Positions 8,648 through 53,982 of a DNA stretch of 64,000 nt are shown piece by piece. Made by a program: the position numbers and the translations under genes. The DNA is taken from the NCBI GenBank assembly GCA_030648645.1, contig JAUSHL010000038.1, positions 3,657 through 67,656 of the forward strand, read 5' to 3'. The notes under the pieces were generated by a model. The model ran no database searches. It had not been told where the DNA came from and worked only from the letters and a program-made list of their open reading frames with translations. The stretch's first letter is position 1. Every line of letters starts with the position of its first letter. Origin of the DNA: Candidatus Daviesbacteria bacterium (lineage in GTDB: Bacteria > Patescibacteriota > Microgenomatia > Daviesbacterales > UBA10151).

Positions 8648-9298
8648 ATGACAAATAATGATTTAGTTTATGGATTTTTAGACGAGTCTCCTAATTTACA
8701 GGATAAATTTGCTTTCTTTTCAGTAGTTATTATATTAAGCACTAACCCAGATGAGAAAAGTTATAGATCAATTTTTAAAAAAACTCGCAAGAATGTTCTT
8801 AAAAAGAAACAGAAAGAAATCCCTGAATTAAAGTTTGCCAATTCTACTCCTCAAGTAAGAATTAAAATACTGAAGGCCATTGGTAAAAGATCTATTAAAA
8901 TATCTGCTTATATTTTGGATAAAGCAGGAAGACGTATACCAGATACGCCTGAAAATTATGGTATTGTGGCTGGTTTTGCGATTAGTGAGGTATTAAAGAA
9001 ATACCCTGTTATTGTTTTAACTTTTGATAAAAAATATACCAAAGTTAAAGATCAAGAAGAAGTGGAGAGAGTAACATTAAAAGTTGTAGCTAAAGTTTTA
9101 AAGAAAGGTGTATTACAGTTTAAGGAGCATGGTGATAGCAAAGCAAACAGTATACTTCAAATGGCAGATTTTGTAGCTGGGGCAGTAAGTTATAAATACA
9201 ATTTGAATGATAAGAGCTACTGGGAGTTGATAAAGGATTTAATTGAACAGGAAAATAAGGAATCATGGATAGATATTAAAGCAATTTATAAGCAATAA
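8648..9298 (+). CDS. DUF3800-like protein (accessory cassette gene)
   Basis: N-terminal VYGFLDESPN resembles the Y-x-DESG signature of DUF3800; bracketed by repeat modules. Confidence 0.3.
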   Translation: MTNNDLVYGFLDESPNLQDKFAFFSVVIILSTNPDEKSYRSIFKKTRKNVLKKKQKEIPELKFANSTPQVRIKILKAIGKRSIKISAYILDKAGRRIPDTPENYGIVAGFAISEVLKKYPVIVLTFDKKYTKVKDQEEVERVTLKVVAKVLKKGVLQFKEHGDSKANSILQMADFVAGAVSYKYNLNDKSYWELIKDLIEQENKESWIDIKAIYKQ

Positions 9299-9485
9299 AA
9301 AAGAATAGTCAATCCCTGGGCTCCGATTCTCACCGCCTTTTTCGAGGGTAAACCCCGATGGGTCTACTTTGCACGGAATAAGACCGCTATTGCTGGACTA
9401 GAGATCCCAGGACTTACTCGACTATTCTTGATTAAGATTGTACCAAATTTTCACCAATTTTTCAAGGCCCAGATTTTAAAATAAC

Positions 9486-9722
9486 TCAAGCAAAGGAAGG
9501 AAGTATAAGCTTATTTAGTTTCACTAAATATCTTGAACCCAAAATAAGTATTTTGGGTATAATCTAATTCAACTCAAGCTTGTAAAAATTCGTTGAATAT
9601 CTTGAATTCAAAATGAAGCATTTTGAATATAAACCAATTTAACTCGTCCACCAGTGGCGGACTCATTAAATAGTTTGAACCAAAAATTTGCAAATTTTTG
9701 GTATAAATAACTAGATCAATTT
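9486..9722. repeat. ~235-bp direct repeat copy 1 (three tandem -35/palindrome/-10-like modules plus a GC hairpin), left flank of the HEPN/MNT cassette
   Basis: Near-identical to 10586-10812; contains TTGAAC-ccaaaatNNNattttgg-gTATAAT style units. Confidence 0.85.
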
Positions 9723-9736
9723 TTGAGTTCTGGGAG

Positions 9737-10093
9737 TTATTGGATTTTATCTTTCACAAAGCTTGTAATTTCTTTAGCAAACTTATAAGCTTCTTCTGAT
9801 TTTTCCTTAGTAAAATGAATAAATTCTGAAAGATCTGGGTAGCGTGAAGGAATGTAATAGGTGTTAAGAGCAACACACTCGTTTCTTAAACTCTCAAAAG
9901 ACTGGTCACTTTTAATACATTCTTCAAGTAGTGCTCTTAAATCGTGAATTTTCTTGATGTCTTTTTCTTGACTAATCAAATAAGCTTTTAGAGCTTTTTC
10001 CACTGCTTGCTGGGATGTAAAACAAGCTCCATACCAAATTTTTCCTTCCAGACTATTTTTGTAACTATTCAGAGTTTCCCAGTAGACTGTCAT
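9737..10093 (-). CDS. HEPN domain protein (toxin component of HEPN/MNT pair)
   Basis: C-terminal YYIPSRYPD motif characteristic of HEPN proteins partnered with minimal nucleotidyltransferases; 118 aa. Confidence 0.6.
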   Translation of the reverse strand: MTVYWETLNSYKNSLEGKIWYGACFTSQQAVEKALKAYLISQEKDIKKIHDLRALLEECIKSDQSFESLRNECVALNTYYIPSRYPDLSEFIHFTKEKSEEAYKFAKEITSFVKDKIQ

Positions 10094-10157
10094 CGCGAGG
10101 GTCGAAACTTCGACCCGTGGCGATCTAATTAGATTGCTTCGCTACGCTCGCAATGAC
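10088..10157. mobile_element. MITE-like GC-rich palindromic element (tgtcatcgcgagg...ctcgcaatgac)
   Basis: Terminal inverted repeats shared with >10 other copies in window; its terminal tgtcat supplies the ATG of the HEPN gene. Confidence 0.6.
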
Positions 10158-10261
10158 GATTTTATTGGGAAGAACTAATTAGTTACCTATTTTTTGTCCA
10201 GGAAAGATCATCTAATGCATAATTAAGCCATTTCTGAGATGACTTATTTATTGATTTACGA

Positions 10262-10558
10262 TTATCCATATACAATTTTACCAGTCTCGTTAGCCTCTTT
10301 TATAAAAAGATTATCTAGTTTTGCTTTTTCGAATTCCTGGGGTGTTAACACAAATATGTCAACAGCAGTTACTGTTCTTAGAAGTAGATGTACTTGTTTT
10401 TGTCTTTCAAGAAAAGGCAGGGTAGTTTTTTTTATAACGACAAGATCTACATCACTATCTGAGCTGGGTTTACCATTAGCATAAGATCCAAAAAGAATTA
10501 TTTTTTCCGGGTTATAAGGCATAATTTGATCAATAATGTCTTGAACTACTGAATTCAT
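10262..10558 (-). CDS. minimal nucleotidyltransferase (MNT, antitoxin component of HEPN/MNT pair)
   Basis: LFGSYANGKPSSDSDVDLVVI = GS...D.D nucleotidyltransferase motif; 98 aa. Confidence 0.7.
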   Translation of the reverse strand: MNSVVQDIIDQIMPYNPEKIILFGSYANGKPSSDSDVDLVVIKKTTLPFLERQKQVHLLLRTVTAVDIFVLTPQEFEKAKLDNLFIKEANETGKIVYG

Positions 10559-10585: not shown

Positions 10586-10812
10586 GGGGGGAGGAAGTAT
10601 AAGCTTATTTAGTTTCACTAAATATCTTGAACCCAAAATTTTGGAGAATTTTAGGTATAAACCAATTTAACTCAATTTTACAACTCTCGTTAAATGGCTT
10701 GAATTCAAAATGAAGCATTTTGAATATAAACCAATTTAACTCGTCCACCAGTGGCGGACTCATTAAATAGTTTGAACCAAAAATTTGCAAATTTTTGGTA
10801 TAAATAACTAGA
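10586..10812. repeat. ~230-bp direct repeat copy 2, right flank of the HEPN/MNT cassette
   Basis: Near-identical to 9486-9722 (shared ggaagtataagcttatttagtttcactaaatatcttgaaccc... and ...tccaccagtggcggactcattaaatagtttgaaccaaaaatttgcaaatttttggtataaataactagatca). Confidence 0.85.
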
Positions 10813-10863
10813 TCAGTTTTTGGGGTTGATAAATTATGCCTCTGTGGTTTATACTTAATAAGT

Positions 10864-11003: not shown

Positions 11004-11114
11004 TGTCATTCTGAGCACTTCGATGTCATTGCGAGCGAAGTGAAGCAATCTCAGTGTAAACTCAGCGAAGAATCTCTTGAGATTGCTTCTCCGGCTTCGC
11101 CGGATCGCAATGAC
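11004..11114. mobile_element. MITE-like palindromic element between rpmH and rnpA
   Basis: gtcattgcgagcgaagtgaagcaatctc ... gagattgcttctccggcttcgccggatcgcaatgac forms one long imperfect palindrome. Confidence 0.6.
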
Positions 11115-12600: not shown

Positions 12601-12788
12601 GTCATTGCGATCCGGCGAAGCCGGAGTGGCAATCTTTTCTATCTACAATAAACTAATTTAACTCGTCCGCCAACCGGCGGACTCGTTAAATATTTTGAAC
12701 CCAAAATTTTGATTAAAAGTTGTAGACTGGAGTATTTTGGGTATAGATTGCTTCGTCGTCCGCCAGCTGGCGGACTCCTCGCAATGAC
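12601..12788. mobile_element. composite MITE-like element (gtcattgcga...ctcgcaatgac termini) enclosing a hairpin plus promoter-like module
   Basis: Termini match the MITE family; interior carries atttaactcgtccgccaaccggcggactcgttaaat hairpin and ttgaacccaaaatttt...attttgggtata unit. Confidence 0.5.
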
Positions 12789-12924
12789 AGTAATTTTTTC
12801 TGATTGACTGATCCTAGATTTTCCTTTATACCCACATTACTTTAATGGGTTCAAACTTTTTAATGAGACCGCCAGCTGGCGGTTGCAAAATCGAATTAAA
12901 ATAGTTTATACTTACCTTCATTGT

Positions 12925-18176: not shown

Positions 18177-18185
18177 CAGTTGTAC

Positions 18186-18317
18186 TGTCATCCCGGACTT
18201 CGTCCAAAGGACGATCAGCCTTTGGCTGATGATCCGGGATCCATGAATTTATTTATATAGATTCCTGCCCCTCGGTCCTGAGTCCCTCGGGATCGAAGGA
18301 CTTTCGCAGGAATGACA
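18186..18317. mobile_element. MITE-like element, subfamily 2 (tgtcatcccgg...caggaatgaca)
   Basis: First 60 bp nearly identical to the copy inside valS at 21304-21388. Confidence 0.6.
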
Positions 18318-18359: not shown

Positions 18360-19124
18360 ATGGATAGAATAGCTTTAAAAGCGGAAGAACGGGAAATATT
18401 GGGTAAAAAAGTTAAAAACCTTCGAAGTCAGGGTTTAATTCCGGCCCACGTTTTCGGAAAGGGACTTCAAACAGAGCATGTTACAGTAAGTGCTTTAGAA
18501 TTTAAAAAAGTTTATGACCAAGCCGGAGAAACCGGTTTGATTGATTTAAAGATCGGGGCAGAAAAAATCAGACCGGTGTTGATTCGGGGTGTTCAACTGG
18601 ATCCGGTCAGAGATAATCTTTTACACATTGATTTTTATCAAGTTAATTTATCGGTGAAAGTTAAAGTATTTGTACCGATTGAAATTATTGGGGAAGAGGC
18701 AGAAGCAGTACATACAGGGGAAGCTGTGGTTATTCAGCCAATGTCAGAGATTGAAGTTGAAGCTTTACCTGCCGATTTGCCGGAAAAAATTACTGTGGAT
18801 ATTACCTCACTTAAAGCAATTGATGATGCAATTTTAGTTTCCGGTTTATCTGTACCGGAGGGGGTGACAATTTTAGCCGAACCTGAAGCAGTGGTGGTAA
18901 AGCTTGATAGCGCAGTAACTGAAGAAATGAAGAGATTATTGGAAGAGCAAGCTGCTGAAGCTGCGGCGGCAGCTGCTGCACAGGCTCCTGCCGAAGGAGA
19001 ACCCGCCTCCGCTGAAGCTACGGCGGGCAAGGAAGCAGAGGGAGAAAAAGGTGCACAAGTTTCAACTGAGGCTGAACCCGCCTCCGCTGAAGCTACGGTG
19101 GGCAAGGAAGAAACTCCTGAATAA
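18360..19124 (+). CDS. rplY: 50S ribosomal protein L25 / general stress protein Ctc with Ala/Glu-rich C-terminal extension
   Basis: N-terminal L25 fold sequence ...REILGKKVKNLRSQGLIPAHVFGKG...; tail contains tandem EPASAEAT.GKE repeat. Confidence 0.85.
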   Translation: MDRIALKAEEREILGKKVKNLRSQGLIPAHVFGKGLQTEHVTVSALEFKKVYDQAGETGLIDLKIGAEKIRPVLIRGVQLDPVRDNLLHIDFYQVNLSVKVKVFVPIEIIGEEAEAVHTGEAVVIQPMSEIEVEALPADLPEKITVDITSLKAIDDAILVSGLSVPEGVTILAEPEAVVVKLDSAVTEEMKRLLEEQAAEAAAAAAAQAPAEGEPASAEATAGKEAEGEKGAQVSTEAEPASAEATVGKEETPE

Positions 19125-19223: not shown

Positions 19224-19751
19224 ATGGAAGGTTATAAAAAGTTGGCAAGCTATATTTTAGCTACAGTGATTCATGATTTAACTGCTATATTTGTTAAACG
19301 TTGGATAAGTCCATATTCCCGGACAACAGATCAAATGGAACAGGCAGCCAGATCCGGTAAACAAAATATTGCCGAAGGGTATACAGTCCAAAGCCTGGAG
19401 AGTTATATAAAACTTTGTGGAGTAGCTGAAGGCTCAATTAAAGAACTGGCAATTGATTTTGAAGATTTTTTAAGACAAAGAGGATATTCTATTTGGGATA
19501 AGAATGATGAAAGAGTTAGGGGATTTAGGGCTTTTAGGGCTGTTTGGAAAATACCTAATATCCCCAATACCCCAAATTTACCTAATAATCCTGAAGAAGC
19601 AGCAAATATGCTTTTAACTTTTTGCCAGATGGAGTCTTTTCTTCTTCATAGGCAAATTGAAGCTTTAAGAAATAAGTTTATTTCAGAGGGTGGTTTTAGA
19701 GAAAATTTATTCAAAGAAAGGTTGATAGAAAAGAAAAAGCAAATTAGATAG
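19224..19751 (+). CDS. four-helix-bundle protein of the 23S rRNA intervening-sequence-encoded family (TIGR02436-like), with C-terminal extension
   Basis: MEGYKKLASYILATVIHDLTAIFVKRW...EQAARSGKQNIAEGY resembles IVS-protein family; here free-standing. Confidence 0.45.
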   Translation: MEGYKKLASYILATVIHDLTAIFVKRWISPYSRTTDQMEQAARSGKQNIAEGYTVQSLESYIKLCGVAEGSIKELAIDFEDFLRQRGYSIWDKNDERVRGFRAFRAVWKIPNIPNTPNLPNNPEEAANMLLTFCQMESFLLHRQIEALRNKFISEGGFRENLFKERLIEKKKQIR

Positions 19752-21996
19752 TTTTTGGCCAATTTTTAGTCATAATAGATTCTCCTGGAGCTATCTTTTG
19801 CCATAACTCTTCTGATAAAAAAGGCATAAAAGGATGGAGGAGCTTTAAGCAGGTTTGGAAAACATATTCTAAAACTGGTTGAGCCTCAGCTCTTCTGTCT
19901 TTGCTTTTTTCAATATAAACATCAGCAAACTTATGCCAGATAAATTCATATAATGTTTCTGTGGCCAGATGAAGCTGGAAGGATTCTAAATTTTTGGTCA
20001 CATCATTAATAGTTTTGTTTAGTTCTTCTAGTATTTTTTTATTATCGATATGAGATTGCTTCTCCGGCAATTGCCGGATCGCAATGACGTCAGTGCCGAG
20101 CGTTGTTGAAATGTCATTGCGAGGAGCCGTAGGCGACGTGGCAATCTCTTTTGGTTTTAGTTCATAAATAAATCTGTAAATATTTTTTATCTTTGTCCCA
20201 AAGTTCCGGTAATTTCTGCATCTTTCATCTATTATTTGTCGGGAGGTTCTGCCATCACGGCCGGGGGCAGAGTAGGAATAGAGTGCCATGCGGGTAGCAT
20301 CTACTCCCCACAGTTGTACCAAATCATAAGGATTAATACCATTGCCTAATGATTTGGAAAACTTTTTTCCATCTATTCCTCTGAGTGTTCCATGGAAAAA
20401 CATGTTTTTAAAAGGAATACTATCCTTAAACCAAAGACTTAACATAATTTGGCGGGCAATCCAAAGGTATTTAATCTCCGGAGCAGTTAGTTCAAAATCC
20501 CAGGGGAAGTATTTTTCCAATTCATCAGATTTGTCAGGTTTACCCTCCGAAGCTTTAGCGGAGGAGGGCCAATTAAGTGTAGATAAGGGCCACATTCCGG
20601 AAGAAAACCAAGTGTCTAAAACTTTCTCTTCCTGCACCCAGTCTTCTCCAGGTGAGTCTTTTGATACTTGTATTTGATTCCCTTTGTACCATATCGGTAT
20701 ACGGTGTCCCCACCAAAGATTGCGTGAGATACACCAATCATGAATTCCACTTAGCCAGTCTCCCAGAATTTTGTCATAGTTTTTGGGTAAAAAGTTGATT
20801 TTATCTAAATTCTTTAAAGCTTTTTCTGCCAATGGTTTCATTTTGATAAACCATTCCTCGGAGATTAAAGGCTCAACAGTAGTTTTGCATCTTTCGCAAA
20901 CAGGGACTGAATGAGTATATTCTTCTACTTTTTCGATTGTTCCATTTTGTTCTAAAATTTCAGCAACTTTTGCTCGGGCCTCGGCAATTTTTAAACCCTG
21001 CAAATCTCCGGCTAGATCAGTCATTTTTCCTAATTTATCAATGGCATGTAAAATCGGAAGGTTATGATCTTTGCCGATGGCAAAGTCCAAAGGATCATGA
21101 CCGGGGGTAATTTTTAAAGCCCCAGTCCCAAAATCTTTTTCAACACGGGTATCTTCAAAAATTGGGATTTGATTATTGTTTAATGGATTGATGGCAAATT
21201 TTCCAATAAATTTGGCAAATTTTGGATGATTGGGAAAAACTGCAATACCGCAATCTGCATAAATTGTTTCCGGACGGGCGGTGGCAATAGTAATAAATTG
21301 ATCTGTCATCCCGTACTTCGTCCAAAAGACGATCAGCCTTTGGCTGATGATACGGGATCCATGGATTCCCGCTTCCGCGGGAATGACATTATTGTTTTGT
21401 ATTTGATATTTAACATAATAAAGCTTTTCTTTTCTTTCCTCATATTCCATTTCCACATCTTCAATGGCAGTGTTGCATTTGGGACACCACTCTACAATAT
21501 AAGCCCCTTTATAAATTAAATCTTGCTCCCACAAAGTTTTAAATTCTACAAAAGTGGCTTGTTGAATTTTGGGATCCAAGGTAAAAACTTCTCTTGACCA
21601 GTCAGCCGAAATACCTAAAAAAGTCCAGGTGTTATGAAAAGAATTATAAATTTTTTCTTTAAATTTCCAAGCCCTTTTCATCCAACTATCATATCCTAAC
21701 TTTTGTTTGGAAAGATTTTCTTTGGCCAGTTCTTTGTTAAAAGTTGATTCAAAAATAATGCCGGCATGATCAACCCCCGGTAATAATAAAACATCAAATC
21801 CTTGCATTCGTTTGAAACGGGCAACTGCATCCAAAATTGATTGTTGCATAGCATGACCGAGGTGCAAATCTCCATTGACATTGGGTGGAGGCATTAAAAG
21901 GGAATAAGGTTTTTTAGAAGACTTAGGATCTGCTTTAAACAGCCCCGCCTTTTCCCAGAAATCATACAATTTTTGTTCTGAAGTTTGTTCATCCAT
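19744..21996 (-). CDS. valS: valine--tRNA ligase (short form) carrying two in-frame repeat-element insertions
   Basis: HIGH-type motif PPPNVNGDLHLGHA, KMSKS-type KFSKSLGN, editing-domain region WCPKCNTAIEDVEME; insertions at 20052-20148 and 21304-21388. Confidence 0.8.
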   Translation of the reverse strand: MDEQTSEQKLYDFWEKAGLFKADPKSSKKPYSLLMPPPNVNGDLHLGHAMQQSILDAVARFKRMQGFDVLLLPGVDHAGIIFESTFNKELAKENLSKQKLGYDSWMKRAWKFKEKIYNSFHNTWTFLGISADWSREVFTLDPKIQQATFVEFKTLWEQDLIYKGAYIVEWCPKCNTAIEDVEMEYEERKEKLYYVKYQIQNNNVIPAEAGIHGSRIISQRLIVFWTKYGMTDQFITIATARPETIYADCGIAVFPNHPKFAKFIGKFAINPLNNNQIPIFEDTRVEKDFGTGALKITPGHDPLDFAIGKDHNLPILHAIDKLGKMTDLAGDLQGLKIAEARAKVAEILEQNGTIEKVEEYTHSVPVCERCKTTVEPLISEEWFIKMKPLAEKALKNLDKINFLPKNYDKILGDWLSGIHDWCISRNLWWGHRIPIWYKGNQIQVSKDSPGEDWVQEEKVLDTWFSSGMWPLSTLNWPSSAKASEGKPDKSDELEKYFPWDFELTAPEIKYLWIARQIMLSLWFKDSIPFKNMFFHGTLRGIDGKKFSKSLGNGINPYDLVQLWGVDATRMALYSYSAPGRDGRTSRQIIDERCRNYRNFGTKIKNIYRFIYELKPKEIATSPTAPRNDISTTLGTDVIAIRQLPEKQSHIDNKKILEELNKTINDVTKNLESFQLHLATETLYEFIWHKFADVYIEKSKDRRAEAQPVLEYVFQTCLKLLHPFMPFLSEELWQKIAPGESIMTKNWPKTI

Positions 21997-22028: not shown

Positions 22029-23348
22029 TCAATCAGAAAGAGAGATGTTAGGGTTTGCTTGTAGTTTGATTGGTTCAATTGGGTGATAGTTGTATAAAGC
22101 ACTAGTTGCAATATAGACAGCATTATCGGTACAAAGCTTGGGGGTAGGAATAGAAATTCGCACATTCATCTTTTTTTGCAAAGATTGTGCCACAAGCTTT
22201 TTGGCAAGAATTTGGTTGGCTGCAACTCCTCCTGCAACCAAAATTTGTTCAACTTTAAATGTTTGGACGGCTTTTAAAGTTTTGGCAACTAAAACATCGG
22301 TGATTGCTTCTTGGATAGAGGCTGAGAGGTTTGATATTTCTTGGGATTGCTTCTCCGGCAATTGCCGGATCGCAATGACATTGTTCTTCTTGTCATCGCG
22401 AGGAGTGTTAACGACGAAGCGATCTCTTGCAATATTTGAAATTGCAGTTTTTAAACCGGAAAAAGAAAAATCCCAGCCATAGGCTGGTCCGCCTTTGGCG
22501 GAAAAATTTCCATTCTCCAGCATTGGTCGGGGTAGTGGATATGCTTTGGGATTTCCTTTTTCTGCCATTTTTGAAATGGACGGACCTCCGGGATAAGGTA
22601 AACCCAGTAGCCTGGCAGATTTATCAAAACATTCACCGGCAGCATCGTCACGGGTTCCACCTAAATATTTATATTTACCATGATCTGTCATTAAAATTAA
22701 ATCTGTATGACCTCCTGAAACAAGAAGACCAATGGCGGGGAAGGTGGGTACTGTAAAATTGTCATTGCGAGGAAGGTCGATACTTCGACCCGGCGCGGCA
22801 ATCTTATTAATTGATTTGGCAGATTGTTTCGCGGAGTTTACGCTGAGATTGCTTCGCTCTGCTCGCAATGACGTCGAAGTGTTCGCAATGACAGGAGAAA
22901 TCCAATTTGCATAAAAATGACCCAGTAAGTGATTCACCGGTATTAATGGTTTATTCCAAACAGTTGCCAGAACTTTAGCAGTTTCTACTCCCACAAGGAG
23001 AGAACCAATTAGCCCCGGACCTTCGGTAACAGCAATGGCATCGATAGATTTTATTATCTCTTTATTGTCATGCTGAACTTGTTTCAGCATCTTGTCTGTG
23101 GATCCCGAAATAAATTCGGGATGACACTTTGCTTGAGTAAGTGCTTCCTGAATGACGGGAATAATGGATTTTAATTGTTCACGGGCTGCCTGTTCCGGGA
23201 TCACACCGCCGAATTTAGCTTGTAACTCAGCCGAGGATGCCACAATATTGGACAATATCGTTACTCGTTTCTCGTCACTCGCCACGATAGCACAAGCTGT
23301 CTCATCACAGGATGACTCAATTCCTAAAATGATACGGGGATTTTTCAT
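22029..23348 (-). CDS. tsaD: tRNA N6-adenosine threonylcarbamoyltransferase TsaD (Kae1/Gcp family) carrying two in-frame repeat-element insertions
   Basis: N-terminus ILGIESSCDETACAIV, HLLGHFYAN and LVSGGHT motifs; 439 aa vs ~340 typical; insertions at 22345-22436 and 22760-22893. Confidence 0.85.
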   Translation of the reverse strand: MKNPRIILGIESSCDETACAIVASDEKRVTILSNIVASSAELQAKFGGVIPEQAAREQLKSIIPVIQEALTQAKCHPEFISGSTDKMLKQVQHDNKEIIKSIDAIAVTEGPGLIGSLLVGVETAKVLATVWNKPLIPVNHLLGHFYANWISPVIANTSTSLRAERSNLSVNSAKQSAKSINKIAAPGRSIDLPRNDNFTVPTFPAIGLLVSGGHTDLILMTDHGKYKYLGGTRDDAAGECFDKSARLLGLPYPGGPSISKMAEKGNPKAYPLPRPMLENGNFSAKGGPAYGWDFSFSGLKTAISNIARDRFVVNTPRDDKKNNVIAIRQLPEKQSQEISNLSASIQEAITDVLVAKTLKAVQTFKVEQILVAGGVAANQILAKKLVAQSLQKKMNVRISIPTPKLCTDNAVYIATSALYNYHPIEPIKLQANPNISLSD

Positions 23349-28243: not shown

Positions 28244-28322
28244 TGTCATTCCGAGTGCATCCGAGGAATCTTCCGTCTTAAGCGGGAAGATTGCCACGCT
28301 CACTATGTTCGCTCGCAATGAC
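28244..28322. mobile_element. MITE-like element (tgtcattccgag...ctcgcaatgac)
   Basis: Termini match the MITE family. Confidence 0.55.
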
Positions 28323-35723: not shown

Positions 35724-35734
35724 AACATATGCAG

Positions 35735-35835
35735 TACCAATTTAGTGGACGACCCGCCGGCTAACGCCTGAGCGCCCGCCCGCTTCGATATGCGAAGCAT
35801 TTCGTGCAGGTAGCGATGGCGGGCAGGTCGCATCA
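35735..35835. other. GC-rich (~65%) nested-hairpin element between convergent genes; candidate structured ncRNA or MITE
   Basis: Outer stem taccaatt/aattggta, inner GC stems (gacgacccgccgg / cggcgggcaggtcgc, gcttcg-atat-gcgaagc). Confidence 0.4.
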
Positions 35836-36558
35836 TGAATTGGTATGGAAAACACGTTTAGTAAATTTTTTAAAAATTCTCAATTGATCAGTGTTTGTTT
35901 GAAGATATAAATTCATTATATTGTCTACTCTCAAAATTATTTCTGCTGTGGCAGGATTTTTATTGGAAATACTATTATTTAACTCATAATATAAAGTTGC
36001 AGTTGGATTATTGGGTTTTATATTTAACATGGTGTATCTGAAATATCCTGTTTTATCTACAGAAATAAAATTATGAATTTTTTCATTTCTTTGTCTGTAA
36101 TCTAAAGGTTTTTTATCAAAACTTATTTCCAGCTTGTTTATATCCGGATCAGAAATATAATAAGTAATTTGTAATATTTCATCATTTATTTTTATTTCGC
36201 GTTGATAGGCAAAAGGGTTTGGTTTTGTTGTTTTTTTATCCTGTAATAATTTATCAATAATTAATTGTCTTAAAGTTTTGATTCTATTGAAGGTTTGCAG
36301 TTTTTCAGCATCTATAATATTTTGTTGTTCTTGGAGAACCGTTTTTTCTTCGAAGGTTTCAAGAAATGTACTTACGGGAACATTGGTATCTAAACACAAC
36401 CATGTTTCAACTTGTTCAATAATTTTTGTATAGGCAGTTATCGGGGTATAGGGTTGACCAATGGAGGTAGAAAATCGTTTACTTTCAACTAAAACTTCCA
36501 GATATTTTAATCTGTCATTAAAAGTTGGTTGACCAGTTGTTTCTTTTTCCTGCAACAT
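35833..36558 (-). CDS. hypothetical protein
   Basis: ORF track only; last codons lie inside the GC-rich element. Confidence 0.3.
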   Translation of the reverse strand: MLQEKETTGQPTFNDRLKYLEVLVESKRFSTSIGQPYTPITAYTKIIEQVETWLCLDTNVPVSTFLETFEEKTVLQEQQNIIDAEKLQTFNRIKTLRQLIIDKLLQDKKTTKPNPFAYQREIKINDEILQITYYISDPDINKLEISFDKKPLDYRQRNEKIHNFISVDKTGYFRYTMLNIKPNNPTATLYYELNNSISNKNPATAEIILRVDNIMNLYLQTNTDQLRIFKKFTKRVFHTNS

Positions 36559-39205: not shown

Positions 39206-39535
39206 ATGGTAAAAAAAATAACTAGAACCTATAACCTAGAACCTAAAACCTCAGTCAAACCATTGGCAGGTTATGTTTTAATAGAACCTGCTGAAGCGGA
39301 AACTAAAACTTCTTCAGGTATAATCCTTCCGGAAAATGCTCAGGAAAAACCCAGTTTGGGAACAGTTTTAGCTTGTGGAGAAAGTTTGATCTTAGAAAAT
39401 GGCAAAACTATTGGATCCCCAGTCAAACCTGGGGACAAGGTTTATTTTAAAAAATGGGGCAGTGATGATATTAAAATTGAAGGAAAGGAATTAAAATTAG
39501 TCAAATTTGATGATCTGATGGCTATCGTTGAGTGA
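39206..39535 (+). CDS. groES: co-chaperonin GroES
   Basis: ...KPLAGYVLIEPAEAETKTSSGIILPENAQEKPSLGTVLACG... Confidence 0.85.
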   Translation: MVKKITRTYNLEPKTSVKPLAGYVLIEPAEAETKTSSGIILPENAQEKPSLGTVLACGESLILENGKTIGSPVKPGDKVYFKKWGSDDIKIEGKELKLVKFDDLMAIVE

Positions 39536-39554
39536 AGTTGACCCGCCTCTGGCG

Positions 39555-39704
39555 AGGTCATCCTGAGCGTAGTCGAAGGATTGATGACTTAATGGCAATA
39601 GTGGAGTGAGATTGCTTCTCCGCCAGTTGGCGGATCGCAATGACGCCAGCACTGAGTGTAGTTGAAGTGTCATTGCGAGGAGCCGAAGGCGACGTGGCAA
39701 TCTA
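39555..39704. mobile_element. MITE-like element immediately downstream of groES
   Basis: gaggtcatcctgagcg ... gagattgcttctccgccagttggcggatcgcaatgac ... gtcattgcgaggagccgaaggcgacgtggcaatct. Confidence 0.6.
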
Positions 39705-39722
39705 TGAAAAAGGGAGAAAAAT

Positions 39723-40109
39723 ATGGTTATAGAAACAAATAGACAATTTGAAGTGGATGCTAAATCGGTGGAATTAATTGATAGTGGGTTAGTGGCAAAA
39801 TCTGTAGATGGTACTAAACTGTTTAAGTGGGTTGATTACGGGAGCTCTATTATATTCGCCTATGCCCGACACTTATCAGATGACAAATCAGCAATAGAGA
39901 TGTTGGATAACATGTGTCAAGCACGAAATGGTAATATGTCAGCTTTAACTCAATATCGTAGTTTAGTAGAGTCATCATTAAAGCATTATCAACAACTGCA
40001 TCCAGAATATGAGAACTGTGTTTTAGGGGTGGATGTTTCAATTGAAAGAAGGGAACAGATAAAATATAATCATCGTGAAATTGGTATTTGGAAGCCAATT
40101 AGTATTTAA
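39723..40109 (+). CDS. hypothetical protein (gene 1 of 3 inserted between groES and groEL)
   Basis: ORF track; preceded by AGGGAGAAAAATATG. Confidence 0.4.
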   Translation: MVIETNRQFEVDAKSVELIDSGLVAKSVDGTKLFKWVDYGSSIIFAYARHLSDDKSAIEMLDNMCQARNGNMSALTQYRSLVESSLKHYQQLHPEYENCVLGVDVSIERREQIKYNHREIGIWKPISI

Positions 40110-40120
40110 AGGAGAAAAAT

Positions 40121-40573
40121 ATGACAGAAATAGTATCAGAAATAAAACAATTACAGATTAATCCCAGAACTATTAGAAGAAGTGAGGGGGAGTTTTTCGC
40201 AACAGGTAGAAATGGAGTAGATATTTTTTGTCTCTTAGGTAGTGTAGGAAGTTTGCTGGATGAATATCTTACTTATAAGCATTTAGCTGGTCAAAAATTA
40301 TCAGAAGAATTATCAGGCGAATATAGAGATTTAGCCAAAAGAGCTCTTGATTGGTATATAAAAGAAAATTTTGAAAATAGAAGGGATATGGCTTTAGGTG
40401 TTCTGGTTGATGAGAATGAAGAAGGAGAATTAATGTATAAGCATGATGATCTGGGTTATTGGAAAAAAGTTGGCAAAAAAGCTAGACATGCTGGAGGAGT
40501 AATAAGGATAAGGAGACAAAATGGTTATGCGGATGGATATTCATGGAGAATAGTAGAGATACCAGTAACTTAA
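40121..40573 (+). CDS. hypothetical protein (gene 2 of 3 inserted between groES and groEL)
   Basis: ORF track; preceded by TAAAGGAGAAAAATATG. Confidence 0.4.
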   Translation: MTEIVSEIKQLQINPRTIRRSEGEFFATGRNGVDIFCLLGSVGSLLDEYLTYKHLAGQKLSEELSGEYRDLAKRALDWYIKENFENRRDMALGVLVDENEEGELMYKHDDLGYWKKVGKKARHAGGVIRIRRQNGYADGYSWRIVEIPVT

Positions 40574-40583
40574 GGAGAAAAAT

Positions 40584-40865
40584 ATGGCAAATATTTATTT
40601 TGAAATAAGAACAGACCCATCTATAATAAAACAGTTGATAAATTCAAGTCAATGTTTGTGGAATAAAGTTTATGACAATGCCGTGGCAGTTGTTAAAGGG
40701 CAGGAAAAACCGGATTTTCGTGTGAATATTGCATATCTTGAAATCAAAAGGGATTTGGCTACTTTAACCGGGGATATTCATGAAGAAGGCAGACTGAATG
40801 ATTTAAGAAGAAATTTGGAAAGATCATCGAGCACATCCTCTGCTGAAAGAAGAAGGGGATATTAA
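40584..40865 (+). CDS. hypothetical protein (gene 3 of 3 inserted between groES and groEL)
   Basis: ORF track; preceded by TAAGGAGAAAAATATG. Confidence 0.4.
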   Translation: MANIYFEIRTDPSIIKQLINSSQCLWNKVYDNAVAVVKGQEKPDFRVNIAYLEIKRDLATLTGDIHEEGRLNDLRRNLERSSSTSSAERRRGY

Positions 40866-40880
40866 TTAAAGGAAAAAAAT

Positions 40881-42518
40881 ATGGCTAAAATATTGAAATT
40901 TGATAGTGAAGCAAGAGAGAAATTATTAAAAGGGATTAATATCCTGACTGAGGCTGTGGCTTCAACACTGGGACCCAAGGGAAGAAATGTTGCCATAGAT
41001 CGCAAATGGGGTGCTCCCAATGTGGTCCATGACGGAGTAACTGTTGCCAAAGAAATTGAACTGGAAGATCCATTTGAAAATATGGGGGCTCAACTGATTA
41101 AGGAAGCAGCCTCCAAAACCAATGATGTGGCAGGAGATGGAACCACCACTGCTACTATTTTGGCTCAAGCCATTGTGGCAGAAGGCTTAAAAAATATTCA
41201 GGCCGGAGCCAATCCAATGATTTTGCGACACGGTATTGAAAAGGCAGTTGATATTTTAGTTGAGGAATTGAAGAAAATGAGCAAAAAACTTACTCTGCCT
41301 TCAGAAATTACTCAGGTTGCCACTATTTCTGCTCAGGATGAAGTAATCGGTAAAATAATTTCTGATGCTATTTCCCGGGTTGGTAAAGATGGAGTAATTA
41401 CAGTTGAGGAGGGAAAAACTATGGAAATGAGCGTTGATTATAAGGAAGGTATGGAATTTGAAAAAGGCTATGCTTCTCCTTATTTTGTCACTGACACTGA
41501 TAAGATGGAATCTTCTATTGAAGATGCTCACATCTTAATTACTGATAAGAAAATCTCCAATATGGCCGAACTTTTGCCTTTCCTGGAAAAGTTTGTCCAA
41601 GTTTCGAAAAATTTAGTCATTATTGCTGATGAGATTGAGGGAGAAGCCTTAACTACATTGGTGGTTAATAAACTTCGGGGAGTATTTAATGTTTTGGCAG
41701 TAGGAGCACCAGGGTTTGGCGATCGAAGAAAAGAAATGCTTTCCGATATTGCTATTTTAACTGGTGGAACAATAATTTCCGAAGATACCGGCCGAAAACT
41801 TGATTCAGTTGAAGTGACTGATTTAGGTAGAGCTGGAAGAGTCACCTCTTCCAAAGATACAACTTTAATTGTTGATGGAAAAGGATCAAAGAGTAAAATT
41901 GATGCCCGAGTTTTGCAAATAAGAAAAGAACTGGAAAATTCTGATTCAGAATTTGATAAAGAAAAACTGGCTGAAAGATTGGCAAAACTTACCGGTGGAG
42001 TAGCAGTGATAAATGTGGGAGCAGCAACTGAGGTGGAAATGAAAGAGAAAAAAGAAAGAGTGATTGATGCAGTGGCTGCCACTAAAGCTGCCATTGAAGA
42101 AGGAATTGTGGCTGGAGGAGAGATTGCTTTACTTAGAGTAGTCTCAGTTTTAGATAAAACAAAAGCTGACCCTTCAACAGGCTCAGGGCAAGAGGAAAAA
42201 GTGGGAGTGGAAATTATCAAAAAAGCGATTGAACAGCCCTTTAGAAGATTAATGAGTAATGCCGGTTTTGATCCAGGGGTAATGCTTGCTAAAGTTTTAG
42301 AATCTGCAGGGAATATGGGGATAGATGTGTTGGATGGTAGTGTGAAAGATTTAGTCAAAGCAGGTATTATTGATCCGGTTAAAGTTACCAGAACAGCTTT
42401 GCAAAATGCCTCATCGGTGGCTATTATGGTGATGAGTACTAATTGTTTAATTACAGATTTACCGGAGAAAAATTCTCCAGCCATGCCCCAAATCCCTCAG
42501 GGAATGGGTGAATATTAA
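40881..42518 (+). CDS. groEL: chaperonin GroEL
   Basis: MAKILKFDSEAREKLLKGINILTEAVASTLGPKGRNV...AGDGTTTATILAQAIV; 545 aa. Confidence 0.95.
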   Translation: MAKILKFDSEAREKLLKGINILTEAVASTLGPKGRNVAIDRKWGAPNVVHDGVTVAKEIELEDPFENMGAQLIKEAASKTNDVAGDGTTTATILAQAIVAEGLKNIQAGANPMILRHGIEKAVDILVEELKKMSKKLTLPSEITQVATISAQDEVIGKIISDAISRVGKDGVITVEEGKTMEMSVDYKEGMEFEKGYASPYFVTDTDKMESSIEDAHILITDKKISNMAELLPFLEKFVQVSKNLVIIADEIEGEALTTLVVNKLRGVFNVLAVGAPGFGDRRKEMLSDIAILTGGTIISEDTGRKLDSVEVTDLGRAGRVTSSKDTTLIVDGKGSKSKIDARVLQIRKELENSDSEFDKEKLAERLAKLTGGVAVINVGAATEVEMKEKKERVIDAVAATKAAIEEGIVAGGEIALLRVVSVLDKTKADPSTGSGQEEKVGVEIIKKAIEQPFRRLMSNAGFDPGVMLAKVLESAGNMGIDVLDGSVKDLVKAGIIDPVKVTRTALQNASSVAIMVMSTNCLITDLPEKNSPAMPQIPQGMGEY

Positions 42519-44359: not shown

Positions 44360-44475
44360 ACTTGTGAATTATAAGCCAATTTAACTCAAATTGCAACTTT
44401 CGTTAAATGGCTTGAGCCCAAATTAAAGTATTTGGGCATAACAAAATTTAGGCACAAAAGCAAATCTGGGTGCGA

Positions 44476-45220: not shown

Positions 45221-45314
45221 CTCATCAAATTCTTTCCACTTTTAGATTCAACTAATGATCACTACAAGTAAACTTACTCAGTAAATCACAAACTCTTGGA
45301 CGGCCACATCATAA

Positions 45315-45404
45315 ATATCACACCCTTGTGTGTCATATCACACCCCAAGGGTGTGATATGACACACCCTTGGGGTGTGATATGACATTGGGGTGTGATAT
45401 GACA
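45315..45404. repeat. array of 15-16-bp repeats GGGTGTGATATGACA (one inverted pair followed by direct copies)
   Basis: atatcacaccc, tgtcatatcacacccc, gggtgtgatatgaca, ggggtgtgatatgaca, ggggtgtgatatgaca in 90 bp. Confidence 0.85.
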
Positions 45405-45500: not shown

Positions 45501-46292
45501 ATGAAAAAGAAAATTTTTGTTATTTTAATAGTTTTGAGTGTTTTAGCCTTGCTTTTTCGTTTTGGAGTGCCAATGCTCGCTAGTTTGTGGGAAAATCCTA
45601 AATCAGGGCTGCAGATTAGCTCAACTCCCGAAGCTGATGTTTTATTTGATGGTCAACCAGTGGGCAGAACTCCTTATGAAAATAATGATTTAAAAGTAAG
45701 AGATTATAAAATTACACTTAAAGCAGGAGAATCTATCTGGCAGGGAATGATTCCAACAACAGCAGGTACGGTTTCTATTCTAAATAGAGATTTAGCTCCC
45801 AATATTGCTTCTTCTTCCGGAGAAGCTTTGGTATTAAGAAAAGGAAAAGGGGTTTTTTTAACTTCAACTCCCTCTGAGACAGAAATAGAAATTAATGGGA
45901 AAGTTTATGGTAAAACTCCTCTTTTAATTTCAGATTTAGCACCTGCCGAATATGTTTTTTTGTTATCTCATTCAGGATATAATAAGAGACAAATTAGAGT
46001 AGTTTTACCACCTCAAATGCAACTAAATATTAATACCGACTTAGCTGTCACGGAAGTTGATTTAGGAGTAAGTTCCAATATTCCTAAAGTAAGTTCTGAA
46101 ACTAAAGTTACAGTCAAACAAACTCCCACAGGATTTTTGAGAGTAAGAAATAAACCATCAACTACGGGAAAGGAATTAGCCAGAGTTTCTGCTGGCGATA
46201 GTTTAATTTTATTGGAAGAAGGTACTTGGGATAAAATCAGGACTACTGATGGAATAGAAGGTTATGTTTCCGGGGTTTATATAATTAAGTGA
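45501..46292 (+). CDS. PEGA-domain protein with C-terminal SH3b domain
   Basis: Two PEGA-like segments (PEADVLFDGQPVGRTPY; PSETEIEINGKVYGKTP) and SH3_3-like C-terminus. Confidence 0.5.
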   Translation: MKKKIFVILIVLSVLALLFRFGVPMLASLWENPKSGLQISSTPEADVLFDGQPVGRTPYENNDLKVRDYKITLKAGESIWQGMIPTTAGTVSILNRDLAPNIASSSGEALVLRKGKGVFLTSTPSETEIEINGKVYGKTPLLISDLAPAEYVFLLSHSGYNKRQIRVVLPPQMQLNINTDLAVTEVDLGVSSNIPKVSSETKVTVKQTPTGFLRVRNKPSTTGKELARVSAGDSLILLEEGTWDKIRTTDGIEGYVSGVYIIK

Positions 46293-50457: not shown

Positions 50458-50583
50458 TTTTTATGGCAAGTTAGTTAATTATATCCAAAACACTCGCTTA
50501 ATCAAAGTTTTGGATTCAAGCTATTTAACGAGACCGCCAGCTGGCGGTTGCAAATTCGAGTTAAATTAGCTTATACTTAAAAT

Positions 50584-53813: not shown

Positions 53814-53982
53814 TAGTTTATTTTAACTGTTTCAGAAGACAGAATGAAGTCTTTACTTTGTTTAAATCATTGATATAAGATGGATATAAGCTAATTTAAC
53901 TCGAGTATGTAGCTCTCGTTAAATATCTTGAACCCAAAATATTATAATATTTTGGGTATAGAGCAAGAAAGGAAAGTTTTAA

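Follow-up and report, generated by a model that had tools for sequence, protein, structure and literature searches.

Hairpin repeats of probable REP/RPE type within the valyl-tRNA synthetase reading frame of a Candidatus Daviesbacteria bacterium

The valyl-tRNA synthetase (ValRS) gene of a Candidatus Daviesbacteria bacterium (valS; 19744-21996, minus strand) bears three insertions within an uninterrupted open reading frame of 750 aa, and these segments are very likely translated insertions of the REP/RPE type. The gene lies on a metagenome-assembled contig known from one assembly, of which a stretch of 64 kb (the window) was analysed, and the evidence consists of sequence and predicted structure. 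For 25 years, in-frame palindromic repeats have been known as an oddity of Rickettsia and a small number of Proteobacteria; Rickettsia palindromic elements were reportedly described by Ogata et al. in 2000 and 2002. The same kind of element appears to be active in the ultra-small CPR bacteria, within genes that they cannot lose.

The explanation favoured here, which is considered likely as a whole and is held slightly less firmly than the nature of the segments themselves, combines the insertion of hairpin repeats and their translation as loops with three further steps, namely selfish spread, an Ssn mobiliser and a filter by selection. The units would be non-autonomous selfish elements that spread as single-stranded hairpins, served by a trans-acting enzyme; the best candidate would be a GIY-YIG nuclease of the single-strand-specific Ssn family, with its gene at another place in the genome. 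Integration itself would be fairly unselective, and selection would retain only stop-free copies whose length is divisible by three and which lie in loops or domain linkers. The retained phase would encode a hydrophilic peptide (GTC ATT GCG, read as V-I-A..., or ...CGC AAT GAC, read as ...R-N-D). We know of no enzyme that moves CGTC-tagged repeats.

Insertions in valS and their predicted place in the protein

A preliminary description of this DNA had placed two repeats inside the ValRS frame, and both are present there as elements A (20051-20147) and B (21304-21388), with coding-strand translations as it had quoted them; a third insertion of 30 nt (20539-20568) had been overlooked. Element A is a head-to-head dimer of two type-A units with a 24-nt spacer and encodes the peptide EIATSPTAPRNDISTTLGTDVIAIRQLPEKQSH (aa 617-649). 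One of its units (20054-20088, minus strand; GTCATTGCGATCCGGCAATTGCCGGAGAAGCAATC) is read as VIAIRQLPEKQS, and the second (20113-20146, plus strand; GTCATTGCGAGGAGCCGTAGGCGACGTGGCAATC) has near-identical counterparts at 39669-39702 and in two other loci (L019 and L055). Element B (peptide NVIPAEAGIHGSRIISQRLIVFWTKYGMT, aa 203-231) is a tail-to-tail pair of hairpin units, comprising an NTS-like hairpin (21361-21388, minus strand; TGTCATTCCCGCGGAAGCGGGAATCCAT) and a second unit (21305-21359, plus strand; GTCATCCCGTA...TACGGGATC) that has two nested hairpins in its loop and is 91% identical to 18187-18241. The third insertion (peptide PSSAKASEGK, aa 477-486) is GC-rich and carries no YGTC tag; its family is uncertain, no second copy was found within the window, and its single-strand fold is not significant. 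Against shuffled sequences, the single-strand DNA folds gave z = -3.8 and -4.6 for element A and z = -6.0 for element B. Stretches of the ValRS insert peptides include VIPAEAGIHGSR and VIAIRQLPEK.

The basic unit has a YGTC tag and an outer stem starting with AT, followed by an inner hairpin that varies and by a short tail. Single units are found, as are pairs joined head to head or tail to tail and units lodged in the loop of another. All units open with GTC-AT... and close with ...AT-C, which makes the first two stem pairs A-T. A Y precedes GTCAT in 38/38 type-A units (24 T, 14 C), and tGTCAT is likewise the reading in the two units of element B. In the window's type-A units, an outer stem of 5 bp is accompanied by an internal loop and a variable inner hairpin (26-52 nt), with CTN as the tail. 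The stems of type-A units covary: the head ATCGC is met by the tail GCGAT in 5/5 units, and the head ATTGC by GCAAT in 32/33 and by GTAAT in 1/33. The NTS-like unit of element B has the stem ATTCCCGC, the loop GGAA, the stem GCGGGAAT and the tail CCA. Elements A and B are different unit types, and not two subfamilies of one repeat family as had been proposed; the dimers of both have inverted ends (terminal inverted repeats). Counts of units were made with defined head motifs because a generic detector (GTCAT plus GC-rich) was too noisy in loci of higher GC content.

The host gene is intact. Its product scores above the NCBIfam equivalog cut-off for ValRS (NF004349; 778 bits vs 704), contains the Pfam domains tRNA-synt_1 and Anticodon_1, and has its catalytic motifs in place (HLGH at aa 45 and KFSKS at aa 545). 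The possibility that valS is a decaying pseudogene, or that the assembly of a repeat-rich metagenome bin produced the insertions as artefacts, draws on the single MAG contig and on a ValRS without the four-cysteine knuckle. However, the knuckle-less form is common to 17 other orthologs, the full-length frame is intact, in-frame units of this kind recur at these sites in independent assemblies, and an artefact would not keep frame ten times in one window. Of the alternatives weighed here, it is the one given the least credence.

The AF2 model of ValRS has a mean pLDDT of 84 and superposes on the Thermus thermophilus enzyme (1GAX) with a TMq of 0.75. The pLDDT falls below 50 in five stretches (aa 205-227, 478-487, 622-641, 180-182 and the KMSKS loop), and the three inserts coincide with three of these five. 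In the model, the insert sites map to a beta-hairpin tip that precedes the editing domain and to a linker before the anticodon-binding helices. The repeat segments are probably transcribed and translated with valS as extra, probably disordered surface loops. The insert peptides have no NCBIfam match at E <= 10, the window has no tRNAs, and at Rfam gathering thresholds no family was found on the repeats, the sole match being a DUF3800-III RNA elsewhere. By segment length, repeat-derived residues make up ~9% of ValRS and ~21% of TsaD, the product of a second host gene in the window. Such insertions inflate and diversify CPR protein sequences and may mislead alignment, phylogeny and annotation.

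Copies elsewhere, empty sites and the pattern of insertion

The 35-nt type-A unit of element A occurs five times in the window at <=3 mismatches (0 in 100 shuffles). It is 100% identical at 20054-20088 (valS), 22345-22379 (tsaD) and 62987-63021 (a FemAB-like gene), where it is read as VIAIRQLPEKQS every time, and has 3 mismatches at 39610-39644 and 61572-61606; the peptide VIAIRQLPEKQS is found in four proteins, in the same codon phase. Identity between copies in different genes could also stem from gene conversion instead of recent movement. Element A has a partial copy in tsaD and a full-length intergenic copy downstream of groES (39607-39703; 89% identity), in which one stem pair is altered on both sides (CCGGC/GCCGG to CCGCC/GGCGG). 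Element B shares 91% identity over 70 nt with 18180-18249, within an intergenic B-type double hairpin (18187-18316, plus strand) between a DUF4012-type gene and rplY. The preliminary description had given 18186-18317 as ~90% identical to element B, which holds for the first 70 nt (91%); the remainder differs by a 14-nt AT-rich spacer and an extra nested hairpin.

Further copies lie both within and between genes. The tsaD gene (22029-23348, minus strand; TIGR03723, 338 bits vs a cut-off of 296) encodes 439 aa, vs 347 aa in the closest syntenic relative, and has four insertion sites: a head-to-head type-A dimer (22342-22428; RDRFVVNTPRDDKKNNVIAIRQLPEKQS), a 30-nt insertion with two mini-hairpins (22473-22502; peptide SAKGGPAYGW), a cluster of type-A units, one nested within another (22752-22895), and two small tagged hairpins (23052-23130; GTCATGCTGAAC... 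and GTCATCCCGAA...). Two adjacent FemAB-family genes carry a tail-to-tail type-A dimer (62935-63021, peptide DVIAIRQLPEKQSETEIASSSGSAGAPRND; gene 62245-63342, minus strand) and a single type-A unit (61572-61606, minus strand, peptide VIAIRRKPEKQS; gene 61241-62173, minus strand). Between genes, a type-A dimer lies at 10089-10157, flanked by nucleotidyltransferase and HEPN genes, its upstream unit (10089-10125, plus strand) being the ATCGC/GCGAT stem variant. In a cluster upstream of rnpA (11005-11114), the loop of a GTCATTCTGAGC unit encloses a type-A unit, and another type-A unit follows in reversed orientation. Two type-A units downstream of yidC (12601-12788; 12601-12634 on the plus strand, 12746-12788 on the minus strand) flank a copy of an AT-rich repeat, and a GTCATTCCGAG unit forms an intergenic tail-to-tail pair with a type-A unit at 28245-28322.

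Empty sites are found in relatives. The closest syntenic relative (L073; tsaD-valS-rplY) has a ValRS of 708 aa that is 76% identical. None of the three valS segments, and none of those in tsaD, is present there, the sites being empty, and unit heads number 0 in 8.1 kb vs 11 in the window's matching 8 kb. In T. thermophilus ValRS, aa 203-233 have no counterpart and aa 477-486 fall in a gap of 10 residues, and the segments are missing from most of 120 ValRS orthologs. This alignment to orthologs and structure, called for in the preliminary description, supports a reading of the valS segments as lineage-specific insertions. Homologous segments in unrelated lineages had been named as evidence that would speak against it; similar segments do occur at the same ValRS positions in some unrelated-looking lineages, and they are different or independently arranged units and do not represent an ancestral segment that was conserved. 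Comparison of filled with empty sites, at valS site 1 in six genomes and at every site against L073, showed neither a consistent target-site duplication nor a consistent target motif; its precision is limited by ~25-30% divergence, and only the elements' own GTCAT/ATGAC ends are consistent.

Insertions in the orthologs cluster near aa 202, 477 and 614-633. The aa-477 site holds different short GC-rich peptides in other orthologs, and in-frame units occupy the same valS sites in independent assemblies of other studies (L001, L002, L003, L008, L018, L030 and L043). In other loci, valS holds 23/65 unit heads vs 12.6% of the sequence (p = 2e-6). In a rough neighbour-joining tree, the orthologs filled at site 1 (the window's, P0002 and P0014) adjoin empty ones, and a shared indel conflicts with the tree. 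Recurrent insertion at the same loops across species serves as a natural map of where ValRS and TsaD are permissive.

This recurrence, together with the over-representation of valS as a host, could also mean that the hairpins are kept for host benefit, either as Ssn cut marks that limit the replacement of essential genes by transformation, a role proposed for NTS in Neisseria (PMC11893778), or as mRNA hairpins that slow ribosomes at domain boundaries. The modelled sites ahead of the editing domain and the anticodon-binding helices would suit such a role, stem covariation shows maintenance of the hairpin itself, and NTS repeats are concentrated near important genes and affect how N. meningitidis is transformed (PMC11893778). 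However, the insertions are missing from most orthologs, including the closest relative, and a given site is filled by unrelated units from one species to another. Furthermore, units are ~4x denser between genes (0.216/kb) than in genes (0.053/kb) in 1.28 Mb of related genomes, and a filter for permissive loops would yield recurrence too. Host benefit is therefore judged improbable, and selfish spread filtered by selection is preferred.

The same 1.28 Mb provides evidence on translation. Of 60 genic unit heads, 49 (82%) are in phase with GTC or GAC as a codon, and every genic copy keeps the frame and has no stop codons. These observations bear on the possibility that the ValRS protein lacks the segments, owing to their removal as an intron or intein or by ribosomal bypass, for which their strong single-strand structure could be cited; Lang et al. 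are said to have found in 2014 that the ribosome bypasses GC-rich mobile hairpins in AT-rich yeast mitochondrial genes. Removal would make the preservation of frame and phase unnecessary, which counts against it, as do the small size of the segments (30-97 nt) and the negative Rfam and NCBIfam results. It is very improbable, although rated marginally above the pseudogene or artefact. An intein or self-splicing intron was rejected on the same grounds of size, with no Rfam match at gathering score and no protein-family match. Both excision and a pseudogene had been put forward as tests of the first reading, and the intact frame, with HLGH and KFSKS present, favours translation of the repeats as part of ValRS.

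Association with Ssn-type GIY-YIG nuclease genes

The biochemistry of the nuclease SsnA and its association with NTS/Ssn-related repeats have been described in Neisseria meningitidis (Chenal et al., 2025; PMC11893778). The hairpin at 21361-21388 (minus strand) differs from the Neisseria NTS consensus CGTCATTCCCGCGMAVGCGGGAATCYRG by 3 mismatches (25/28 identical; 0 in 100 shuffles), and type-A units have no match to this consensus. The published degenerate SRM pattern, which was hand-built from 29 genomes (PMC11893778), had 0 matches in the window (mean of 0.04 in shuffles); it is unsuited to these stems, and the NTS consensus and our own unit definitions were used instead.

In CPR genomes, both unit types are found beside GIY-YIG genes. 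These genes encode ~100 aa and have an NTS-ssnA-NTS layout. The exact 27-nt NTS consensus adjoins those examined in L074/75 and L077-L082, and NTS-type hairpins flank small single-domain GIY-YIG genes in L031, L074, L076, L077 and L079-82, that of L031, from Daviesbacteria, having NTS-like hairpins at both sides. The double hairpin that precedes CPR GIY-YIG genes can be aligned with element B and has the same architecture. Type-A units flank the GIY-YIG genes of L203 and L204, in L204 as a perfect inverted pair, and have a CCA tail there. From their size, single PF01541 domain and exact NTS flanks, the CPR proteins can be placed putatively in the Ssn family (SsnA of N. meningitidis, cd10448).

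Searches for a mobilising gene in the window were negative. No GIY-YIG gene was found in the 64 kb by regex and by tblastn with GIY-YIG seeds, and no IS200/RAYT-like gene in the window or the 73 loci by tblastn with an IS608 TnpA sequence. No transposase with the elements' ends was found, the sole gene sharing those ends being the GIY-YIG nuclease. The type-A unit is also present in at least 120 IMG/VR viral contigs, with phage structural genes as neighbours and no GIY-YIG gene in the fetched stretches of 120 such contigs. Among the IMG/VR matches listed, the unit is cosmopolitan, which is uninformative on the enzyme.

Spread and likeness of the copies could instead result mainly from recombination or gene conversion between copies and from template switching at hairpins, without a dedicated enzyme. 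Units are reshuffled, the identical 35-nt unit being joined to a different partner, across a different spacer, in each of valS, tsaD and the FemAB-like gene; consistent target-site duplications and a mobilising gene in the window were not seen; and no dedicated transposase was found for CGTC repeats by Di Nocera, De Gregorio and Rocco (2013; PMC3733652). However, conversion cannot make a copy at an empty site, and relatives have empty sites. Both unit types are moreover the terminal repeats of Ssn-type cassettes, a layout like that of an IS. Spread without a dedicated enzyme is considered unlikely, if less so than host benefit.

Mobilisation in trans is still preferred. Since both unit types are the terminal hairpins of putative Ssn-family GIY-YIG cassettes, the nuclease is the likely, though unproven, candidate for the mobiliser. 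Ssn has been shown only to cut single-stranded DNA, with no pasting activity, and a role in moving repeats has the standing of a hypothesis (PMC11893778); as a claim of its own, that Ssn moves the repeats is tentative and falls somewhat short of an even chance. An equally tentative extension is that Ssn cassettes may be the autonomous partners of CGTC-tagged repeats, their shed terminal hairpins giving rise to coding palindromes (RPE-4/-6 in Rickettsia and the present elements), and that they may be active in CPR, repeatedly remodelling the same ValRS and TsaD loops. With both valS repeat types ending Ssn-type cassettes, the mobiliser question is open to direct experiment.

Comparison with known systems

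The literature covered, which is partial, contained no report of RPE, MITE or palindromic repeats in CPR or Patescibacteria, and the present elements would place a known kind of selfish DNA in that lineage. By their tag and first stem pairs, the units appear to belong to the superfamily of CGTC/TGTC-tagged REPs, together with dRS3/NTS of Neisseria and RPE-4/-6 of Rickettsia; Di Nocera et al. placed RPE-4 and RPE-6 of R. conorii, and Neisseria dRS3 (CGTC-1), among the CGTC-tagged REPs (PMC3733652). The RPE-like behaviour that had been suggested at the outset is supported, and the comparison is better than an analogy, with the YGTC tag and the stem starting with AT both found in CGTC-tagged REPs. 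Shared features are the CGTC/TGTC tag, the two first A-T stem pairs, a short tail (CCA in element B and the cassette copies), dimers, genic copies encoding 20-30 extra residues and tRNA synthetase hosts (PMC3733652). The published stem is 8-9 bp with a loop of 4-5 nt and a CCA tail, which the NTS-like unit of element B matches; type-A units here differ, with a 5-bp outer stem and CTN; nesting of units in loops is common here, and Patescibacteria/CPR lie outside the five phyla listed in that paper (PMC3733652).

Rickettsia palindromic elements are likewise palindromic, genic and intergenic, and in-frame in unrelated housekeeping genes, with a preferred frame (PMC10969869). They sit at positions compatible with the fold, for which the structure model gives a predicted counterpart here. 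They differ in being ~100-150 nt long, whereas the present elements are modular and of 30-97 nt, belong to another phylum and appear to record many independent events at the same loops of one protein across species. The NTS/Ssn system resembles the present elements through the NTS-like hairpin of element B and the CPR GIY-YIG genes flanked by exact NTS or type-A units. However, a term search of the text of PMC11893778 returned neither copies inside reading frames nor CPR.

MITEs (e.g., Coxiella QMITE1, ERIC and Correia) are also small and non-autonomous, with inverted ends, and are sometimes fused in-frame to host genes (PMC10969869, PMC5896051). The MITE-like label first given to the repeats does not hold in the strict sense: the present units are far smaller and hairpin-based, with no DDE-transposase parent IS, and strict MITE identity was rejected, no consistent target-site duplication being present at inspected sites and no transposase having been found. 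GTAG-tagged REPs with RAYT share dimer-forming hairpins that are thought to move as single strands and flank a small gene; they differ in that the tag here is YGTC and the flanked gene is a GIY-YIG nuclease.

Repeat insertions in the ValRS reading frame

The valS gene (19744-21996, minus strand) of this Candidatus Daviesbacteria (Microgenomates, CPR) metagenome-assembled contig is a 750-aa ORF with the Pfam domains tRNA-synt_1 and Anticodon_1; its product is 100% identical to an NCBI MAG protein. The preliminary description placed two palindromic repeat segments inside this frame, and both its coordinates and its translations proved right. These segments, element A (20051-20147) and element B (21304-21388), are accompanied by a 30-nt insertion (20539-20568), which is counted with the repeat insertions by context only. 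Predicted ValRS stretches that cross insert junctions are, for example, ...YQIQNNNVIPAEAGIHGSR... and ...DVIAIRQLPEKQSHIDNK....

Alignment with an ortholog and a known structure bore out the reading of the segments as insertions. Compared with Thermus thermophilus ValRS (1GAX), the window protein is longer in the region of aa 618-648, has a stretch without counterpart at aa 203-233, and faces a gap of 10 residues at aa 477-486. The closest relative among those compared, locus L073 (ValRS 76% identical; synteny over tsaD, valS, rplY and a DUF4012-type gene), lacks aa 201-229 (nt 21310-21396) and aa 477-486 (nt 20539-20568) and has net 23 residues fewer at aa 625-647. Unit heads, the YGTCAT... 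starts of the repeats, number 0 in 8.1 kb of L073 versus 11 in the corresponding 8 kb of the window. In an AlphaFold2 model made from 85 orthologs (mean pLDDT 84), pLDDT is below 50 only at aa 180-182, 205-227, 478-487 and 622-641 and, around the KMSKS motif, at aa 547-552. The model thus flags all three inserts; the rest superposes on 1GAX with a TMq of 0.75. The insertion load of tsaD (22029-23348, minus strand) is heavier than that of valS, with 439 aa against 347 aa in L073, or about 92 extra residues over four sites, and its product is still above the TIGR03723 cut-off.

The possibility that valS is a pseudogene is contradicted by its family score (778 bits against a cut-off of 704 for NCBIfam NF004349), and the HLGH and KFSKS motifs are present. 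Similarly, an origin of the insertions as assembly artefacts is contradicted by independent assemblies. A four-cysteine knuckle found in 96 of 120 orthologs is not in the window ValRS (20686-20784, aa about 436-455), and since this short knuckle-less form is common to 17 other orthologs, it is a clade feature and not decay. The 3' end of valS has an 8-nt overlap with a convergent gene at 19224-19751, whose product has a weak, sub-cut-off Pfam match to the 23S-rRNA-intervening-sequence family; this gene is missing from L073.

Anatomy of the repeats and their surroundings

Element A recurs at full length at 39607-39703 (89%); tsaD contains a related copy, and lone units are found at other places. 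Element B has a 91% match to intergenic 18180-18249. The valS copy of the 35-nt unit GTCATTGCGATCCGGCAATTGCCGGAGAAGCAATC of element A recurs with 100% identity in tsaD and in a FemAB-like gene, and two further window copies carry 3 mismatches. As single-stranded DNA, both elements fold far above shuffles (z = -3.8 to -6.0); an Rfam search of the repeats at gathering thresholds returned no family match. Type-A units, the hairpin repeats of the kind forming element A, were extracted, 18 in the window and 20 in 72 ValRS loci belonging to related genomes; these 38 take the form YGTC-ATTGCGA, then 8-44 nt that are usually a hairpin, then NRGCAAT-CT. The base 5' of GTCAT is C or T in all 38. An ATCGC head is paired with a GCGAT tail in 5/5 units and an ATTGC head with GCAAT in 32/33 (GTAAT in 1/33), so that the outer stem covaries; the inner stem, CCGGC/GCCGG in the valS copy, is also altered on its two sides, to CCGCC/GGCGG, in the copy at 39610. 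Some units stand alone; others are paired, either head-to-head (as in element A, with a 24-nt spacer) or tail-to-tail (as in element B), or lie within the loops of other units (11005-11114 and 22847-22892). The terminus of element B, TGTCATTCCCGCGGAAGCGGGAATCCAT, has 3 mismatches to the consensus of the NTS, a Neisseria hairpin repeat containing dRS3.

The window holds other repeats. A second, AT-rich dispersed family (…TTAAATATCTTGAACCCAAAATTTTGG…TATAAACCAATTTAACTC…, often accompanied by a GC hairpin of the GGCGGAC type) lies at 9495-9725, 10589-10822, 12640-12720, 12846-12914, 44369-44424, 50511-50579 and 53885-53966; every copy is intergenic, two are near-identical over 136 nt (97%), and the TTGAAC…TATAAT spacing looks promoter-like. 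Upstream of ORF 45501-46292, at 45314-45403, lies a cluster of TGTC-tagged AT-rich palindromes with stems of 11 bp (GTCATATCACACCCnnGGGTGTGATATGAC), which may represent a further branch of the tagged-hairpin superfamily. A GC-rich (about 60%) 110-nt island at 35729-35848, with 11-nt inverted ends CAGTACCAATT / AATTGGTATGG, follows a RelE-like ORF; its sole Rfam signal, to a group I intron, is sub-threshold (14 bits, E = 0.4) and probably due to chance. A DUF3800-III RNA (Rfam RF02962, 52 bits; 9302-9428) adjoins ORF 8648-9298, a putative DUF3800-family protein gene judged from its translation by eye only. A REP dimer (10089-10157) sits between the genes of a toxin-antitoxin type nucleotidyltransferase/HEPN pair (9737-10558). 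Between groES and groEL (39206-42518) there are a 200-nt repeat cluster and three small ORFs, the latter at 39723-40109 (no Pfam match), 40121-40573 and 40584-40865.

Reading frame and insertion hot spots

Gene context was examined in the window together with 73 loci (1.28 Mb), using simple, crude ORF-based gene calls. With these calls, 60 defined unit heads were genic and 31 intergenic, or 0.053 versus 0.216 per kb. GTC (sense) or GAC (antisense) formed a codon in 49/60 genic heads, against an expectation of 40%, which is two of five open phases, the sixth containing a stop. The 35-nt unit GTCATTGCGATCCGGCAATTGCCGGAGAAGCAATC is read as VIAIRQLPEKQS in four different proteins (VIAIRRKPEKQS in one case). 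Removal of the segments before translation is contradicted by these frame data: splicing or bypass of the segments would leave a kept frame and a phase bias without purpose, and on this sequence evidence the segments are taken to be translated.

Among 120 ValRS orthologs of 686-778 aa, additional segments are clustered at positions that match those in the window ValRS, and many contain repeat-type peptides (IPAEAEIHGSRVKPGM, VILGSEATPESQ, FDFAQDK, RRSLDEGG, PRNDVIASEAKQS). For the intact valS genes of the loci (n = 63), insertion clusters lie at about aa 202, 477 and 614-633, and also at about aa 437-453, where the knuckle region is variable by nature. Across non-window loci, valS holds 23/65 unit heads in 12.6% of bases (p = 2e-6). 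At site 1 (about aa 202), units are arranged in five different ways across six genomes, at almost the same codon. Filled orthologs adjoin empty ones in a rough tree, but one shared indel conflicts with that tree, and thus independent insertion at site 1 is likely, as judged from these sequences. Spread of copies by conversion alone cannot explain filled versus empty sites. The inspected insertion sites showed neither a consistent target duplication nor a consistent target motif. A host function has also been considered, in which the hairpins serve as Ssn cut sites limiting essential-gene replacement or cause ribosome pausing at domain borders; however, most orthologs have no inserts and the same site is filled by different units, and such a function is less probable and not needed. 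In ribosomal protein L25, two copies of EPASAEATxGK in the C-terminal tail (18957-19106) are encoded by a GC-rich tandem duplication of 75 nt (75% identity); this peptide resembles short ValRS site 2 inserts of other species.

GIY-YIG cassettes and CGTC-tagged repeats

SsnA, a GIY-YIG nuclease of roughly 100 aa, binds and cuts the NTS hairpin as single-stranded DNA; its gene is typically hairpin-flanked, and an IS-like layout of ssn genes has been offered as a hypothesis only (Chenal et al., PMC11893778). No GIY-YIG gene was found in the 64-kb window. Small GIY-YIG genes of related CPR genomes, termed Ssn-type from their size, single PF01541 domain and exact NTS flanks, have a constant layout in loci L031 (Daviesbacteria), L074, L076, L077 and L079-82. 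Upstream lie GTCATTCCCGCGAAAGCGGGAATCCAG, an AT-rich spacer and then AGATTCCC...GGGAATGAC, and downstream CTGGATCCCCGATC...TCGGGGATGAC; all 27 specified NTS consensus bases are exact beside the genes in L074/75 and L077-L082. The upstream double hairpin aligns with element B and its intergenic copy, and the 14-nt AT-rich spacer is missing in valS element B and in the 51-nt same-site version of L002, another related locus. Type-A units also flank such genes, in L204 (gene at 1201-1575) as a perfect inverted pair (ctatGTCATTGCGAGTACTCGAAGCAATCCAG ... CTGGATTGCTTCGAGTACTCGCAATGACa); in L203 three such units lie upstream, and the first part of another lies downstream. Among the best 150 of 13,348 nuclease relatives (E <= 0.001; 1.84 billion cluster representatives), a few have extensions reading through type-A units, and L203 and L204 are the loci of two of these.

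Given both kinds of flank, the two valS repeat types are terminal hairpins of putative Ssn-type gene cassettes. A link of the repeats to Ssn-family nucleases is plausible, and we infer that the putative Ssn-type nucleases may move them. ORFs adjoining these genes often extend into the flanking hairpins, as do the nuclease ORFs themselves (L031 1117-1710 and the nuclease ORF 1766-2083; proteins P0121-P0390), with tails such as ...SFPRKPS... or ...DWIPDQVGNDN as the outcome. Many of the putative genes are on contigs <2 kb, as expected for repeated mobile DNA.

Literature searches, which covered the literature in part, returned no report of such repeats in CPR. 'CGTC-tagged' REPs have a CGTC/TGTC tag, a CCA tail and stems whose first pairs are A-T; family CGTC-1 includes Neisseria dRS3 and Rickettsia conorii RPE-6, RPE-4 belongs to CGTC-4, copies occur inside genes, tRNA synthetase genes among them, and no dedicated transposase was found (Di Nocera et al., PMC3733652). 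The 'RPE-like' label of the preliminary description does not extend to the encoded peptides, which had no family match in NCBIfam, but it is right at the superfamily level, since the window units follow the CGTC-REP tag and stem rules. The evidence thus supports the valS segments as palindromic repeats of the CGTC/TGTC-tagged kind that lie in-frame, in a phylum new to them.
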